In this document: positions 20,234-62,431 of the stretch, piece after piece
How the letters are laid out: each line of letters starts with the position of its first letter
How positions within the stretch are numbered: position 1 is the first letter of the stretch
Source of the DNA: Escherichia phage vB_EcoM_G50
Length of the DNA stretch: 64,000 nt
Sequence record: NC_054917.1
Direction: 5' to 3' (one strand)
Made by a program: the position numbers and the translations under genes
Notes under the pieces: generated by a model
Databases searched by the model: none
What the model was told of the DNA's origin: nothing
The model's input: the letters and a program-made list of their open reading frames with translations, nothing else

Positions 20234-21660
20234 TAAAATTTTAATTCATTTGCCAAAGCATCTAACTGAGCTCGAGCTGATTCGTTTCTTTGATAGCGAT
20301 TCTGTTCAGCCTGAATCTGTTGTGAACCTGCTACTTCACTCACTTCAGTTGGAGTAGAATCTTGTTCAATTTCTACCCATTTCTGATTTCCTTTTTGAAC
20401 ACCCATCAAAAACTTATTCCATTTATTCTTATCACCATATCGTGATTTGATTTGCTTAATGAGTTGTTGTTCAGCAGCTGCTAACTCCTCGGTTTCAATG
20501 ACCGCAAGCATAAAATCAGCTGTCGCTGGAAGACCAGCAGATTCTGCGATATCACTCATGTTAACATCGGAAGAGTCCCAAGCTTGTTTACCAACCTGTG
20601 CTGCAGTCCAAAGAACAGTTTCGGTTTCAACAGCCAGAGCACGCAATTCCTCTGCAATAGCTTTAACAGTTGTGTAACTATTTTCTGAATAAACTCTGAT
20701 GCGGCAAGATTTACAAATACCTAGATAGTCGACAATAATGATTGTTGGAACAAAATTCTTCTTGAGCTTCAATTCATTCAAGAGAGACCTGAATGTGTTA
20801 GCGTCTGCTCCACCAGTAGGATACTGTTTAACGATTAAACGACCAAGGGTAGATTTCTCACGCCATTTTTCCATTTTTCCTTTATATTCAGCGTAAGAAA
20901 TATGCCCATCATCAATGTCATCAAGAGAAACATCAAGCATGTTAGCGTCAATACGCTTAGCACAGACTTCTTCTGCCATTTCCATGGAAATGTAAAGAAC
21001 ATTATGTCCGAGCTGCAAATAATCTGCTGCCAATGAACACAATCCTAATGACTTACCAACGTTAACGCCAGCCATTAAAACGTTCAGTGTTCCAGTCTCA
21101 GCTCCGCCTTTAGTAATTTTGTTCAGAATTCTGAGTTTAAATGGAACCTTACGAGCTTTATTCATATAAGATAGCCAACGTGCTTCGTAGTCATCCATCC
21201 AATCATGACCAACGTAGCTATCAAATGAAATTGATAATGCTTGACGCATGATGTCAGGAATAGCACCTACATCTGGCATTTTCTTATTTCGTTTTTCCGG
21301 AGGAAGCTCAGCATTAGTTTGAATTTCGATTATTTTAGACGTAGCATTAAACATCGCCCTTTGCTGAACATATTTTTCTGTTTCTTTTACTAACCAGCTG
21401 TGGTCTTCCGGAGAATCAGCCAGTTTTGAAATAAGTGTTTTTACACCAGAATATTCTGTTTCAGTAAATGAACTATTTTCTAATGCAACATTTAACGCAT
21501 TAATAGATGGAACGCTATGATACTCATTGACATGAGATTTAATTAATTTGAATGTATTTTTAGCTGGACCACTTTCAAAATATTCTGAATCCATATATGG
21601 CCAAACTTTTGAAAAATAAGCTTGATCAAATATGAGATGAGAAAGAATAATTTCTACCAC
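20233..21660 (-). CDS. 41: replicative DNA helicase gp41 (DnaB-like)
   Basis: 475 aa, Walker A GVNVGKS; matches T4 gp41. Confidence 0.92.
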   Translation of the reverse strand: MVEIILSHLIFDQAYFSKVWPYMDSEYFESGPAKNTFKLIKSHVNEYHSVPSINALNVALENSSFTETEYSGVKTLISKLADSPEDHSWLVKETEKYVQQRAMFNATSKIIEIQTNAELPPEKRNKKMPDVGAIPDIMRQALSISFDSYVGHDWMDDYEARWLSYMNKARKVPFKLRILNKITKGGAETGTLNVLMAGVNVGKSLGLCSLAADYLQLGHNVLYISMEMAEEVCAKRIDANMLDVSLDDIDDGHISYAEYKGKMEKWREKSTLGRLIVKQYPTGGADANTFRSLLNELKLKKNFVPTIIIVDYLGICKSCRIRVYSENSYTTVKAIAEELRALAVETETVLWTAAQVGKQAWDSSDVNMSDIAESAGLPATADFMLAVIETEELAAAEQQLIKQIKSRYGDKNKWNKFLMGVQKGNQKWVEIEQDSTPTEVSEVAGSQQIQAEQNRYQRNESARAQLDALANELKF

Positions 21661-40732: not shown

Positions 40733-41203
40733 TTAATCATGTTTCCACACCCCATCGGTATTTGACCAAAGTCGCTGATTATCTGATCCTCGCCACAGCT
40801 TTTTGGTCGGAAGATTTTTCTCATACTTCCCATCAATAATAACATCAACATATTTAAGCATTTCTAGTTGTTTAATATCTTCAAATTTATATCCTGTCCA
40901 CAACCAAATGCTTTTATTGGGATAAAGATTTTTTACTGTTTGAACAATGCAATGAACAACATCTCGGTTATCAGGATAGAGAGGGTCTCCTCCAGTTATA
41001 GTTAATCCTTCTATATAATCATTATTCAAACATTCAATTAATTGTTCTAGTGTTTCACCAGTGAATGGAACGCCATTTCTAGCGTTCCATGTTGATTTAT
41101 TATAACACCCTTCACATTTATGCAAACAACCTGTAACGAAAAGAACGACCCTGCATCCAGGGCCATTCACAAAATCGCAAGGATAAAATCTATCATAATT
41201 CAT
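40733..41203 (-). CDS. nrdG: anaerobic ribonucleotide reductase activase NrdG (radical SAM)
   Basis: 156 aa with CxxxCxxC (CLHKCEGC); ATGA overlap with nrdD. Confidence 0.9.
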   Translation of the reverse strand: MNYDRFYPCDFVNGPGCRVVLFVTGCLHKCEGCYNKSTWNARNGVPFTGETLEQLIECLNNDYIEGLTITGGDPLYPDNRDVVHCIVQTVKNLYPNKSIWLWTGYKFEDIKQLEMLKYVDVIIDGKYEKNLPTKKLWRGSDNQRLWSNTDGVWKHD

Positions 41204-43017
41204 TGGTGTTTAACCCTATGCATGATTTCTTTATTTTTGCCGAGATTAAATCCACGTTCGTTCGGATTTCCCAAATAACCACAAGTTCTTCTTATTGTGT
41301 TCATCTTTTTAGGATCAGTTTCTCCACAAATAGAACAAACAAACCCGTTTTCAGTAGGAGTCATTTCATGGGTACTTCCACACGTAAAACATTTATCTAC
41401 TGGCATGTTAACACCAAAATAATCTAAATGTTGTGCAGCATAATCCCATACAGCCTCAAGACCTTTTAGGTTATTTTTCATATCAGGAAGTTCAACATAA
41501 GAAATGTGACCGCCTGTCGCAATGAAATGATATGGGGCTTCGCGAGAAATCTTTTCAAACGGAGTAATATTTTCTTCTACTGAAACGTGGAAACTGTTAG
41601 TGTACCAGCCTTTATCAGTAACATCCTTTACACTTCCATATTTCTCAGTATCAAGTTTACAGAAGCGATAACAAAGGTTTTCAGCAGGTGTAGAATACAA
41701 GCTAAAAGCAAAACCAGTTCTTTCAGTCCACTGCTTAAGACGAGCATTCATTTTAGTTAAAATTTCCTGTCCAATATCACGACCGACAAGAATATTCAAT
41801 TCGTGAATACCAATATATCCTAAGGACACTGAACTTCTACCGTTTTTAAATAACTCAATTATATCATCATCGGGTTTAAGACGAACCCCGAATGCACCTT
41901 CTTGGTAAAGAATAGGAGCAACAGTAGCTTTAACTCCTTTTAATGAACTAATTCTACACATCAATGCTTCAAAACACAAATCCATTCGTTCATTGAACAA
42001 TTCGGCAAATTTCTGTTCATTGAACTGTGTTCCAATATAAGAATCTAATGCAATACGAGGAAGATTCAGTGTTACAACGCCAAGATTATTACGTCCATCA
42101 AGAATTTCATTACCAGTCGAATCTTTCCATACGCTCAAGAAACTACGACAACCCATTGGAGAAACAGGAATAGATGAACCTGTGATAGCTTTATTATTCT
42201 TAGCTGAAATAATATCAGGATACATTCTTTTACTTGCACACTCTAGAGCAAGCTGCTTAATATCATAGTTCGGATCGTCTTTATAAAGATTGACACCCTC
42301 TTCAACGAACATAACAAGCTTAGGAAAAATAGGAGTTATCCCATCACGACCAAGGCCTTTAATACGATTTTTCAGAATTGCTTTCTGAATCATTCGTTCA
42401 GTCCAGTCAGTTCCCGTGCCAAATGTAATTGTTACAAAAGGCGTTTGTCCGTTTGAACTAAAGAGAGTATTTACTTCATATTCATAAGCTTGGAATGCAT
42501 CGTATACGTCTTTTTCTGTTTTAGATTGGGCATAATTCAATGCATCTGCGATTTGCCATTTTTCCGCGTCCTCAATATGTTTTGCATAGGTGCGTTTAAC
42601 ATAAGGAGAAAGTACTTTATCTACATTCGCAAAAGTTGTTCCGCCATATTGATGAGAAGCAACCTGCGCAGTAATTTGTGCCATAATTGCAGTAGCAACG
42701 CCAATTGATTTAGGAGTTTCAATCTGTGCATTACCGAGCTTAAATCCGTTCTCAAGCATTCCTTTTAAATCTACTAAACAACAATTAGTAAATGGAAGAG
42801 CAGGGGAATAATCAATATCGTGGAAATGGATAATTCCGCTTTCATGCGCTTTCATAATAAAAGACGGGACCATATTTTTGGCAATGTGTTTAGACACAAT
42901 ACCAGCCATAAGGTCCCGTTGAGTTGGAAAAACACGAGAATCTTTATTAGCATTCTCGTTCAAAAGGTCTTTATTAGTTTTATGAATTAATCCTTCAATT
43001 TCTTTTTCAATTGTCAT
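41200..43017 (-). CDS. nrdD: anaerobic ribonucleotide reductase NrdD, uninterrupted
   Basis: 605-aa continuous ORF with C-terminal zinc-ribbon and glycyl-radical region; no intron. Confidence 0.92.
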   Translation of the reverse strand: MTIEKEIEGLIHKTNKDLLNENANKDSRVFPTQRDLMAGIVSKHIAKNMVPSFIMKAHESGIIHFHDIDYSPALPFTNCCLVDLKGMLENGFKLGNAQIETPKSIGVATAIMAQITAQVASHQYGGTTFANVDKVLSPYVKRTYAKHIEDAEKWQIADALNYAQSKTEKDVYDAFQAYEYEVNTLFSSNGQTPFVTITFGTGTDWTERMIQKAILKNRIKGLGRDGITPIFPKLVMFVEEGVNLYKDDPNYDIKQLALECASKRMYPDIISAKNNKAITGSSIPVSPMGCRSFLSVWKDSTGNEILDGRNNLGVVTLNLPRIALDSYIGTQFNEQKFAELFNERMDLCFEALMCRISSLKGVKATVAPILYQEGAFGVRLKPDDDIIELFKNGRSSVSLGYIGIHELNILVGRDIGQEILTKMNARLKQWTERTGFAFSLYSTPAENLCYRFCKLDTEKYGSVKDVTDKGWYTNSFHVSVEENITPFEKISREAPYHFIATGGHISYVELPDMKNNLKGLEAVWDYAAQHLDYFGVNMPVDKCFTCGSTHEMTPTENGFVCSICGETDPKKMNTIRRTCGYLGNPNERGFNLGKNKEIMHRVKHQ

Positions 43018-44170: not shown

Positions 44171-44275
44171 TTAAGTCATTTATCGTCGGTTCATTATATA
44201 CTGTTTCTTCATCAGTGTAAACCGGTTCTTCCGGCTCTGGCTCTACTGTTTCCCATCTAGCCGCCCACCAAGGTT

Positions 44276-44596
44276 TTATAGCGTAATCCATTCTCGTACT
44301 GTCTGAGTTACTACACGTTCACGGGGCTCGACTAGTTCAACAGTCGGAACTGCATAATACCAGTCAGAATGGTAAGAACCTGAGCGAGATTCATTTACAG
44401 ACACATGAACGTTATGTTTTGGACTAAAATAAACACACTGACGATATTGGCATTTACCATCTTGCACCCAGTCTTCTATTTCGATAGGTTTAAGATAATC
44501 CGAAAAATCGAAATCATAATTTTCTGAAAATGCATCATGGTCTTCGATGATTTCGCTCAGAACTGCATCAACATCTAATTTATTTTCAATATTCAT
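44276..44596 (-). CDS. hypothetical protein
   Basis: 106-aa ORF. Confidence 0.4.
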   Translation of the reverse strand: MNIENKLDVDAVLSEIIEDHDAFSENYDFDFSDYLKPIEIEDWVQDGKCQYRQCVYFSPKHNVHVSVNESRSGSYHSDWYYAVPTVELVEPRERVVTQTVREWITL

Positions 44597-60716: not shown

Positions 60717-60982
60717 TAATATTTTTCCTCTGGTTGGAACACAGCACGACAAGCCCACATACTGGCTTCTTTGAGTTTCGTTTTAGCAATAGTTAACTGA
60801 TCGAGGCTTTCAGCATAATTCTTCGCGAATTCACAGTCTTCACAATTATCTAGTGCTTCCCAAAATTCATCGTATAAAGCATCAAAGATAAGTCCTAAAC
60901 GAACTTCAGCATCTTTAATAGCATTCACTTTACCGATTTTCTCTTCAGTATGTGGCTTATAACCCTTAATATCTTCAATCAT
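60716..60982 (-). CDS. small acidic helical protein (vs.4 position; possible Acb2-like nucleotide sponge)
   Basis: 88-aa ORF, fourth gene downstream of regB; functional label from position only. Confidence 0.35.
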
Positions 60983-61196
60983 ATTTTACTTCCTCACCAG
61001 TACCTAAATCATATTCAACTAAACGAATAGGCTCATGAATTCCATATCCCTGAACAGAAATTTCTGTCGTAGGATAAATTCCATCAATATCACCCATATT
61101 CCATGCTTCATTAAATTGCTGTTCGCCTGAATTACTAAACCACTCGGCGAAAGCATTTAGCACATCTTTAGAACCTTCAATAATTATCTTTGCCAT
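60975..61196 (-). CDS. hypothetical small protein
   Basis: 73-aa ORF. Confidence 0.4.
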   Translation of the reverse strand: MAKIIIEGSKDVLNAFAEWFSNSGEQQFNEAWNMGDIDGIYPTTEISVQGYGIHEPIRLVEYDLGTGEEVKYD

Positions 61197-61558
61197 TACA
61201 GACTCTCGGTAAAGGTACGAGCGATAACGTCGCGCTGCTGTTCCGGAGTCAGAGAGTTAAAGCGAACTGCATAACCGGATACACGGATGGTCAGCTGCGG
61301 ATATTTTTCCGGATGCTTAACTGCATCTTCCAGAGTTTCACGACGCAGAACGTTAACGTTCAGGTGTTGACCACCTTCAATTTTAACTGTAGGCTGTTGC
61401 TCAATTTCAATTTCACGGGCATGCAAACCGTAGAAAATTTCTGGGTCTACAAAAGAGTCCTCTTTAAAGGTTTTAGAAACAATAATTCGTGCTTGAATAC
61501 CATCTTCAAAATAAATAGTACCTTTGTGTGTGCCTTCAAGAATTTGATATGCTTTCAT
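61196..61558 (-). CDS. autonomous glycyl-radical cofactor (GrcA/YfiD-like)
   Basis: 120 aa; C-terminal about 60 aa ([59 protein letters not shown]) identical to E. coli GrcA as recalled; GC-rich host-like codons in that half. Confidence 0.8.
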
Positions 61559-61565
61559 ATAAACC

Positions 61566-61892
61566 TCAATTAGAAAATAAATTTATCCAAGATTGTTCTT
61601 TAATTAAAAATGGCTCAGAATCATATGCCATTAAACTCTGTGTGATTAGTCCTTTAAAAGGCCCATCAATAAATTCCATAGTAAAATATGGAATTTTATT
61701 CATTAGCCGTGCATTAGGAGCCGTGCACAAAACTCTGCATCCTTTGAATACGCCTTTTTGTAATTTGTATTGCTTAGGATAAAATTCGCTCAAAATGTTA
61801 TTTTTTGCTAAAATTTCAAAATGATTCACCAATTTATTTTTAATAGTTTTTGGCGAAAAATAGAGATATTCGAAAAGCTGAGTGTCTGTCAT
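61566..61892 (-). CDS. hypothetical protein
   Basis: ORF from ATG overlapping upstream stop (ATGA). Confidence 0.4.
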
Positions 61893-62431
61893 CATTGCAT
61901 TCCGATTACGAAAAACTGTGGACGAGTAATACCACCAATGCAACATTTAATATTACAGCAGCAGTGTACAGTGTCAATATGGACACTATAAATCTTATCC
62001 ATATCAGGAGATTTGACAGGCTCATCAATTATATATAAAATTCGCGAAAGCTTTAAACCTCTGAACTTGCTTCCTTTATTACCGATAAAACTGCGCACAG
62101 AATCAGTAAATAAACGAAAACGTATATCATCATTAGAATAACGCGAAAATTCCTTTTTAATGTTATTTGCAGAAATTTTAGCGTAAGCTGAAGTATTAGA
62201 AAGAACAATAACTGTTCCGCCATCATACAACCAATTAGCAGCAAAGTTAGTCACAGCAATTGATTTACCGGATTGACGTCCACCGTCTAGTCGAAGTGTG
62301 CAATACTGTTTAAGTAATTCTTCAAATGGCGGGATATATTCGTTTTTACAAATTTCTTCTACTCTAGCATCAGAATGGTGTGTAAAAGCATTCATCAGGG
62401 ATAGATAAGGACCAGTTAAAAATGTTCTCAT
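61892..62431 (-). CDS. small P-loop NTPase
   Basis: 179 aa; Walker A GGRQSGKS, Walker B ILYIIDE; C-terminal Cys cluster. Confidence 0.5.
   Translation of the reverse strand: MRTFLTGPYLSLMNAFTHHSDARVEEICKNEYIPPFEELLKQYCTLRLDGGRQSGKSIAVTNFAANWLYDGGTVIVLSNTSAYAKISANNIKKEFSRYSNDDIRFRLFTDSVRSFIGNKGSKFRGLKLSRILYIIDEPVKSPDMDKIYSVHIDTVHCCCNIKCCIGGITRPQFFVIGMQ

Follow-up and report, generated by a model that had tools for sequence, protein, structure and literature searches.

How does a phage gene come to carry, over part of its length, the DNA of its host letter for letter? The question is raised by a 64,000-nt stretch of Escherichia phage vB_EcoM_G50 (NC_054917.1; called the window throughout), in which a minus-strand open reading frame (ORF) at 61196..61558 encodes 120 amino acids (aa) followed by a stop codon. 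The original prediction, made from the letters alone, had called this ORF a gene, likened it to Y06I of phage T4 and described it as a phage-type N-terminus fused to a glycyl radical domain of the host. We found the ORF as called and identified it as the ortholog of T4 vs.6 (Y06I), a homolog of GrcA (YfiD), the autonomous glycyl radical cofactor of Escherichia coli. Our reading, which we hold to be very probable, is that vs.6 of this T4-like phage is a spare part for the host pyruvate formate-lyase (PFL) PflB, that an internal tract of the gene was replaced by E. coli grcA, that a replacement occurred independently in the genus Jiaodavirus, and that the tract has been re-copied more than once.

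The nucleotide alignment to E. coli grcA that had been proposed as a check gave an exact run of 172 nt, at gene nt 179–350 (window 61380..61209). Over gene nt 179–363 (window 61380–61196) 182 of 185 positions were identical to grcA, and each of the 5,426 complete E. coli genomes contained the 185-nt match, with identities of 95–99% across them. The 5′ part of vs.6 had no blastn match to any of the 5,426 genomes, so host identity is higher in the 3′ part than in the rest of the gene. At a background identity of 85%, the chance of 172 nt in a row without a mismatch is about 6e-13. When window 20001–64000 was compared with the same genomes by megablast, the sole match was 61192–61380. Most E. coli genomes contained two or three places matching vs.6 (grcA, pflB, and tdcE), and at least one contained 21–22.

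The composition changes with the identity. The G + C content (GC) is 0.34 in the 5′ part (window mean 0.345) versus 0.49 in the 3′ part, and that of third codon positions (GC3) is 0.22 versus 0.44, in agreement with the predicted division into an AT-rich, phage-like 5′ half and a GC-rich, host-like 3′ half. The tract is the highest-GC 170-nt segment of the 64 kb (0.506, z = 4.0). The second and third GC peaks, at 44221–44390 (0.494) and 20475–20644 (0.488), reach z of about 3.6–3.7; neither has a megablast match among the 5,426 E. coli genomes, and they are therefore not recent E. coli-derived patches.

A recombination junction had been predicted, and the left junction lies at 61380 as placed. 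The gene has two junctions rather than one, the last 13 nt (61208–61196) being phage-type again: they differ from E. coli at three positions, nt 351, 354, and 357, each time synonymously, and end in GAGAGTCTGTAATG, the ending of distant phage homologs. The 3′ end GAGAGTCT(A/G)TAATG is common to phage homologs without the host tract. The locus thus has the features of an intragenic host–phage mosaic, namely a tract identical at 172/172 positions, boundaries on both sides inside the gene, an identifiable donor and an inferable direction.

An internal patch in a diverged grcA homolog

The window protein matched the Pfam Gly_radical domain (PF01228) with E = 2.5e-18 (67 bits against a cut-off of 22.2) and GrcA in the Protein Data Bank (PDB; 6owr) with E = 9e-42. 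Window residues 61–120 are identical to residues 68–127 of E. coli GrcA at 60 of 60 positions, so the residue-for-residue match stated in the original prediction holds. The N-terminal halves alone share 14 of 40 residues (35%, E = 5e-6), and the NCBIfam GrcA model TIGR04365 aligns to window residues 20–120. Because the N-terminal half is diverged, the whole protein, at 154.9 bits, does not reach the curated equivalog cut-off of 170; the score of E. coli GrcA itself is 233.9. Other marks of the GrcA/YfiD family (TIGR04365, IPR011140) are present: the Gly_radical domain with the RVSGYAV motif and radical glycine, the GrcA-like N-terminal region, and the stand-alone size of the family (about 120–130 aa), with a 120-aa ORF that has its own ribosome-binding site. 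Window Vs.6 therefore resembles E. coli GrcA (YfiD; PDB 6OWR) in being a small stand-alone protein with a homologous N-region and the same C-terminal 60 residues, and differs in being seven residues shorter, in an N-half only about 35% identical and in the phage codon usage of its 5′ half.

Full-length vs.6 homologs without the host tract were found in Karamvirus-like phages, Slopekvirus (KP15), 176–180-kb T4-like phages, T5-like phages, and others (IMG/VR). In these homologs the radical-domain DNA matches any sampled bacterial grcA at 121–147 of 172 positions. Because the N-half is homologous to that of GrcA, the 3′ end is phage-type and full-length relatives lack the tract, a complete, diverged ancestral homolog with a later internal replacement is indicated. 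On these comparisons, the N-terminal half of vs.6 is best described as a diverged GrcA N-half and not as a foreign module, and vs.6 as a resident phage grcA homolog with an internal host-derived patch, not as a fusion of unrelated parts. The mosaic pattern is read directly from the sequences, whereas the mechanism of replacement is what we infer from them.

The claim of a phage N-terminus fused to a host domain thus did not survive, and the suggestion that the protein acts as a spare radical domain for the oxygen-sensitive NrdD of the phage is not supported. The window does encode NrdD (41200–43017) and NrdG (40733–41203), as had been predicted. An illegitimate fusion of an unrelated phage N-module with a captured host radical domain, serving NrdD, would suit their presence in the same window, the sharp composition change at 61380 and the nucleotide-metabolism role that an early comparative paper guessed for the gene (PMC1524935), but it conflicts with the homology of the N-half to the GrcA N-half, with the second junction inside the gene near its 3′ end and with the existence of full-length phage homologs without the host tract. 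A BLASTP comparison with the window's own NrdD gave a best E of 2.6, away from the radical site, and the NCBIfam matches of the window protein include no NrdD model. Residues 58–120 align to PflB 697–759 with E = 5e-26 (1cm5), and Y06I is reported to rescue PFL together with the PFL activating enzyme (PFL-AE), as detailed below. We regard such a fusion as highly improbable. The radical domain is of the PFL type, with the same fold and RVSGYAV motif as the C-terminal radical domain of PflB (PDB 1CM5, 1H16), which is the part of PflB that a spare part replaces. NrdD and NrdG are a separate glycyl radical system.

Blocks of identity with E. coli grcA exist in the tract-free homologs at nt 178–188 in six of the six examined (the block spans nt 178/181–188 in the tract-free loci L009, L016, L018, and L020), at nt 343–350, as an exact block, in three of the six, and at nt 322/325–338, as a block of 14–17 nt, in the same three. 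The tract boundaries coincide with these pre-existing blocks, on the left at nt 178–188 and on the right at nt 350 (E. coli tract) or nt 338 (Klebsiella tract, described below). The coincidence fits crossovers in short pre-existing patches of identity, on the margins of the one part of the gene that is well conserved. No Chi site was found in grcA.

Two groups of phages carry the domain in other forms. In five T4-like loci on IMG/VR contigs of 144–180.5 kb (L014–L018, gene at 1501–1863) the radical-domain protein is that of E. coli GrcA (L014–L016) or nearly so (L017, L018), and the tract DNA differs from E. coli grcA at about 16–19% of positions, nearly all synonymous; GC is 0.49 in the tract versus 0.38–0.41 upstream. 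Such a pattern points either to a conversion that is old and decayed or to very strong purifying selection. A GrcA-like protein of 121 aa is also encoded by T5-like phages of E. coli and Salmonella (L045–L070; contigs of about 104–122 kb and one fragment of 14.5 kb). Its N-half is different, its radical domain has only about 75% DNA identity to any sampled bacterial grcA, and no sign of host conversion was seen in these genes. The T5-like records are annotated variously as acetyltransferase, pyruvate formate-lyase, and GrcA.

Donor and direction of the transfer

The donor was sought in a panel of bacterial grcA copies that comprised 80 genes among the matches listed for a species-level genome collection, together with copies from Klebsiella pneumoniae and Klebsiella aerogenes taken from chromosomes filed as plasmids in PLSDB. 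Identity over the 172-nt core was 171–172 in E. coli and 170 in another Escherichia species, and 142–158 of 172 in Salmonella, Citrobacter, and Klebsiella; among the copies compared, none from Citrobacter, Salmonella, Klebsiella, Raoultella, or Pseudocitrobacter exceeded 158. With a core identity of 171–172/172 set against 142–158 in Citrobacter, Salmonella, and Klebsiella, the donor was E. coli or something indistinguishable from E. coli. It was grcA rather than pflB, because the tract is about 80% identical to pflB DNA and 100% identical to grcA. As a negative control, the phage collection was compared with Salmonella grcA and no phage record reached 95% identity, so there is no Salmonella-derived tract in it.

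Several panel records had peculiarities of their own. The PLSDB entries CP125156.1 (5.37 Mb), NZ_CP093490.1, and LR134122.1, with loci L169 and L170, are Klebsiella chromosomes or large fragments (K. pneumoniae, K. aerogenes) filed as plasmids. In K. aerogenes NCTC10006 an extra A in a homopolymer splits the annotated grcA coding sequence, which is probably an assembly error. An Enterobacteriaceae-type grcA is carried by NZ_JBQPOM010000029.1 (L112, 'Vagococcus sp. WN89Y'), which suggests mislabelling or contamination. A 19-kb 'viral' contig of IMG/VR (L031) has a full-length bacterial-type grcA nearest to that of Yersinia (157/172) and is probably bacterial or prophage-flanking DNA.

Conservation of the protein cannot account for the nucleotide identity of the tract, because genera with the same domain protein do not share the DNA: genera such as Citrobacter, Trabulsiella, Edwardsiella, and Serratia encode an identical 61-aa C-terminal domain and have only 162–169 of 186 nt in common with the phage 3′ end. 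This bears on a rival course of events, in which E. coli supplied the whole of grcA a single time, after which the 5′ half took on phage composition by drift and strong selection froze the 3′ half. Purifying selection on the radical domain is indeed very strong, with a protein identical across many genera and a nonsynonymous divergence (dN) near zero in phages, but selection on the protein leaves synonymous sites free. Bacterial orthologs encoding the same protein differ at 9–13% of positions, and the tract-free T4-like homologs with an identical or near-identical domain differ at the largely synonymous 16–19% of tract positions given above. Within this one gene GC3 is 0.44 versus 0.22 and synonymous divergence (dS) 0.06 versus 0.43, and the tract of the Klebsiella phages has Klebsiella-specific synonymous states. 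An Rfam scan of 60900–61900 matched zero RNA families, so a known RNA element does not account for the nucleotide conservation, and the bacterial orthologs vary at the nucleotide level. We consider whole-gene capture very unlikely and retain the internal replacement.

The direction was from host to phage, because E. coli grcA has a uniform, host-like GC (0.47 and 0.49 in its two halves) and adjoins ung. Transfer from phage to host, or an artefact caused by host reads in the assembly, has nothing in its favour beyond the identity itself, and we take its probability to be practically negligible. More than 600 phage genomes sequenced independently of one another, T4, T2, RB14, and RB69 among them, show this mosaic; grcA adjoins ung and is host-like in GC throughout, and its identity to other Enterobacterales declines gradually with distance.

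One conversion or several

The phages of Klebsiella provide a counterpart. Jiaodavirus vs.6 has a 5′ part with a GC of 0.37 and a 3′ part with a GC of 0.55. Five Jiaodavirus copies were examined; in four of them the core matched K. pneumoniae grcA at 161–166 of 172 positions versus 149–152 of 172 for E. coli, with exact runs to K. pneumoniae grcA of 62–140 nt starting at nt 181, 199, or 226. The run begins at nt 181 in three of the five copies (nt 179 in the window), and the tract ends at nt 338, earlier than that of T4. At the protein level the Klebsiella-type variant LLDAVEH replaces LEDAVKH. The T4-type and Jiaodavirus tracts (four copies) are identical at 149–151 of 171 positions, and the two host grcA genes at 150 of 171. 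Across the phage collection, 77 records matched K. pneumoniae grcA at 95–99% and 61 at 90–95%. From these matches, the Jiaodavirus tract is a second, independent host replacement, with K. pneumoniae grcA as donor.

The tract of PKO111, a K. oxytoca phage, matched K. pneumoniae grcA at 153 of 172 positions with a 30-nt exact run, and its 19 core differences are mostly GC-to-AT; we read it as an older copy decaying towards phage composition rather than as a third donor. The K. aerogenes phage Nispero was considered as a case of tracking K. aerogenes grcA and rejected: it matched that gene at 158 of 172 positions versus 166 of 172 for K. pneumoniae, and there is therefore no species-level tracking within Klebsiella. 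In one Jiaodavirus contig of IMG/VR (L028), a 1-nt deletion at about 1620–1630 in the vs.6 5′ half breaks the frame, marking either a pseudogene or a sequencing error.

Among phages with the E. coli tract, two genera were compared base by base, Tequatrovirus and Mosigvirus, the latter represented by RB69, AlbertHofmann, NicPhage, moha, and two IMG/VR contigs. The E. coli tract is also that of the Mosigvirus copies, and its ends there hardly differ. Identity between the genera is 71% in vs.7, 88–91% in the 5′ half of vs.6, 98–99% in the tract and 70% in vs.5. In the 5′ half dS is 0.43 and dN 0.051 (ratio about 0.12; Nei-Gojobori) with 12 fixed differences; this half therefore evolves vertically under purifying selection. 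In the tract, the same method gave a dS between the genera of 0.062, equal to within-genus values, and zero fixed differences; the nearest fixed differences flanking it are at nt 170 and nt 360. The unchanged E. coli allele occurs in several phages of both genera, and most others deviate from it by private changes. Because the tract has no fixed differences, a within-genus dS and an allele centred on E. coli, it is much younger than the split between Tequatrovirus and Mosigvirus.

Variation within the tract was compared with that of the host. At site 219 E. coli is polymorphic (T or C), and each of the two phage genera includes both alleles. The other phage-private variants tested were rejected as E. 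coli alleles, none being found in the 5,426 genomes. The RB69 tract is 100% identical from nt 209 to 351 to grcA of some E. coli strains. The ends are not entirely fixed: the right end is E. coli-like through nt 356 in T4, through nt 350 in the window, and at nt 351, 357, 358, and 360 in TB004; on the left, the Tequatrovirus phages P922, TB004, and LF73P3 deviate from E. coli at nt 180 and/or 183. Across the whole phage collection, the records matching the window at 95% or more numbered 639 for the 3′ half but only 432 for the 5′ half. Identities in the 3′ half are bimodally distributed, with six records at 90–95%.

Could the tract have been acquired only once by the phages of E. coli? A single host-to-phage conversion in one ancestor, followed by phage-to-phage spread between Tequatrovirus and Mosigvirus in co-infection and with Jiaodavirus as a separate case, would explain why the tract ends are nearly identical in both genera. 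T-even phages recombine readily, and the Mosigvirus variants 195T and 249A are shared in mutually conflicting patterns that point to phage–phage exchange. Such spread would need an exchange limited to precisely the 172 nt identical to the host, in spite of flanks that are only 70% and a 5′ half that is 89% identical. Both genera have both E. coli alleles of site 219. Independent host-to-phage conversion is possible, as Jiaodavirus shows. RB69 reportedly cannot recombine with T4 or the other RB phages (PMC6024577), which argues for separate copying from the host over phage-to-phage spread. We consider the single acquisition unlikely, though it deserves weight. The comparisons are good, not conclusive, evidence and suggest that the tract was converted from the host repeatedly.

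Several points weigh against repeated copying from the usual host. The base-by-base comparison covered only about 13 Tequatrovirus and six Mosigvirus sequences, and the left and right tract ends are nearly the same in the two genera. The allele sharing rests on a single site (219), E. coli grcA varying little, and recurrent mutation is possible there; a third state (G) occurs at this site in one phage. None of the 5,426 E. coli genomes has the tract variants of L005 (192G, 345A) or those of AlbertHofmann. The Klebsiella tract is 96–97%, not 100%, identical to the one K. pneumoniae allele compared. Two phages carry a tract that does not correspond to their named host: 'Salmonella phage PSE-D1' (ON550260.1), a Jiaodavirus, has the Klebsiella tract (97.1%), and in PhiZZ23 (MT176425.1), a Tequatrovirus whose isolation host was Citrobacter rodentium, the tract is the E. 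coli one (98.9% identity with the window 3′ half). As the tract-free 176–180-kb T4-like phages show, host conversion is neither universal nor needed for a match to the host at the protein level. Finally, how the recombination works and what the phage gains from it are deduced rather than observed. The tract may record the usual host of a lineage rather than the host of isolation.

In our reading, T4-like phages carried a full-length, AT-rich, diverged grcA homolog, of which, in the lineage of the window phage, nt 179–350 were swapped for E. coli chromosomal grcA, probably by a double crossover or gene conversion with its ends in the blocks that were identical beforehand. The source would be fragments of the degraded host chromosome, acted on by the recombination system of the phage itself. 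With 172 nt of perfect identity in place, a further conversion would be far likelier than the first, less homologous event. We can put forward, at even strength for and against, that vs.6 is a 'homology trap', its radical half being repeatedly overwritten by grcA of the usual host (E. coli for Tequatrovirus and Mosigvirus, Klebsiella for Jiaodavirus) by way of degraded host DNA. If this is true, the phage spare part stays matched to the PflB and PflA of the host, and vs.6 is a natural record, readable from its sequence, of how a strictly virulent phage and its host have recombined and of the recent host history of the lineage. An exact match to the host may be beneficial, though it is not required.

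The gene and its biochemical role were already known, and the evolutionary pattern is of a known kind, host–phage intragenic recombination. Such recombination, accompanied by patchy GC, was described for the cyanophage metabolic genes psbA and psbD (Sullivan et al. 2006, PMC1484495). The cyanophage psbA mosaics resemble vs.6 in that a metabolic gene of host origin in T4-like phages has patchy GC and has exchanged segments with the host. They differ in that the psbA signal is statistical and exchange was inferred both ways, whereas the vs.6 patch is single, sharply bounded and exact over 172 nt; its donor can be identified to the species level, and a sister phage genus has a counterpart patch that came from a different host genus. 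We found no published report of the vs.6 mosaic or of host-matched conversion in the searchable literature; an earlier mention in a T4 genome review is possible. The gene call itself adds nothing and the junction analysis is of modest value, but vs.6 is an unusually clean case of a strictly lytic, host-DNA-degrading phage copying host sequence by homologous recombination. If confirmed at population scale, it would offer a simple assay of host-to-phage recombination by means of synonymous watermarks in host grcA, a possible marker of the natural host of a T4-like phage, and a case for asking whether exact PflB/PflA matching is selected.

Predicted role and gene context

According to Wagner et al. 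2001, as cited in PMC8683613 and PMC13450708, T4 Y06I rescues oxygen-cleaved PFL after activation by PFL-AE; G734 is the radical and cleavage site of PFL (PMC8683613). Gly95 of the window protein aligns with GrcA Gly102 and PflB Gly734. Given the 98% identity to the T4 ortholog, the function of window Vs.6 is predicted to be the rescue of oxygen-cleaved host PflB. Because the domain aligns to PflB 697–759 and has no similarity to the window NrdD, its likely target is host PflB rather than phage NrdD. In the proposed mechanism, the host activase PflA would install the radical on Gly95, and radical-bearing Vs.6 would dock on PflB whose radical loop oxygen has cut off, restoring activity. The fermentative output of acetyl-CoA and formate could then continue under micro-oxic conditions once host gene expression has been shut off by the phage. 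The phage would bring its own GrcA since host transcription stops after infection.

The identification of the gene agrees with the earlier view that the call is not new. The window gene is identical to T4 vs.6 (NP_049730.1) at 354 of 363 nt and 118 of 120 aa, the window protein having Q54 and R73 where T4 has P54 and H73. E. coli GrcA also has Arg at the position of residue 73 and T4, with His, deviates, so the window tract is even closer to E. coli than that of T4. The flanking genes vs.7 and vs.5 are 96–97% identical to those of RB14, and vs.6 lies between them as in T4 and RB14. The gene position within vs.8-vs.7-vs.6-vs.5-vs.4, together with the high nucleotide identity to T4, is that of the T4 vs.6 (Y06I) ortholog in Tevenvirinae, and phage records label the matching gene vs.6, 'autonomous glycyl radical cofactor GrcA'. 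Because of the identity to T4 vs.6 and of the neighbours to RB14, the window phage belongs to Tequatrovirus and its gene is the ortholog of T4 vs.6/Y06I, a gene already known. The T4 gene has the same position between vs.7 and vs.5 and the same mosaic, and differs in that its E. coli-like stretch ends at nt 356 instead of nt 350. The features of the locus are collected in Table 1.

Table 1 Coordinates of vs.6 and its parts in the window.
Feature	Position	Strand	Basis
vs.6 (Y06I) coding sequence, GrcA/YfiD homolog, autonomous glycyl radical cofactor	61196..61558	minus	ORF, T4 identity, domain matches
5′ part (gene nt 1–178), phage composition, diverged GrcA N-terminal region	61381..61558	minus	GC 0.34, GC3 0.22
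Host-derived tract (gene nt 179–350), 172 nt identical to E. coli grcA, glycyl radical domain	61209..61380	minus	Exact run
Phage-type 3′ end (gene nt 351–363), ACC GAG AGT CTG TAA from third base of ACC	61196..61208	minus	Three synonymous mismatches
Putative left crossover zone (gene nt 178–188, TTGAAGGTGGT)	61371..61381	minus	Block already identical in phage homologs and host grcA
Putative right crossover zone (gene nt 343–350)	61209..61216	minus	Pre-existing identity block
Gly95 codon, RVSGYAV motif, predicted radical site	61274..61276	minus	Alignment to 6owr (GrcA) and 1cm5 (PflB 697–759)
GAGG ribosome-binding site, 5 nt upstream of ATG, overlaps vs.7 TGA stop	61564..61567	minus	Read from sequence

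A sigma-70-like site, TTGACA-N16-TAATAT, lies at 61977–61950 (minus strand), directly upstream of vs.7, and may be a promoter candidate for the vs.7-vs.6-vs.5 run. The promoter and terminator scan counted six promoter-like sites in the region versus 6.8 expected, a number not above chance. At its downstream end, the stop codon of vs.6 overlaps the start codon of vs.5 (TAATG).

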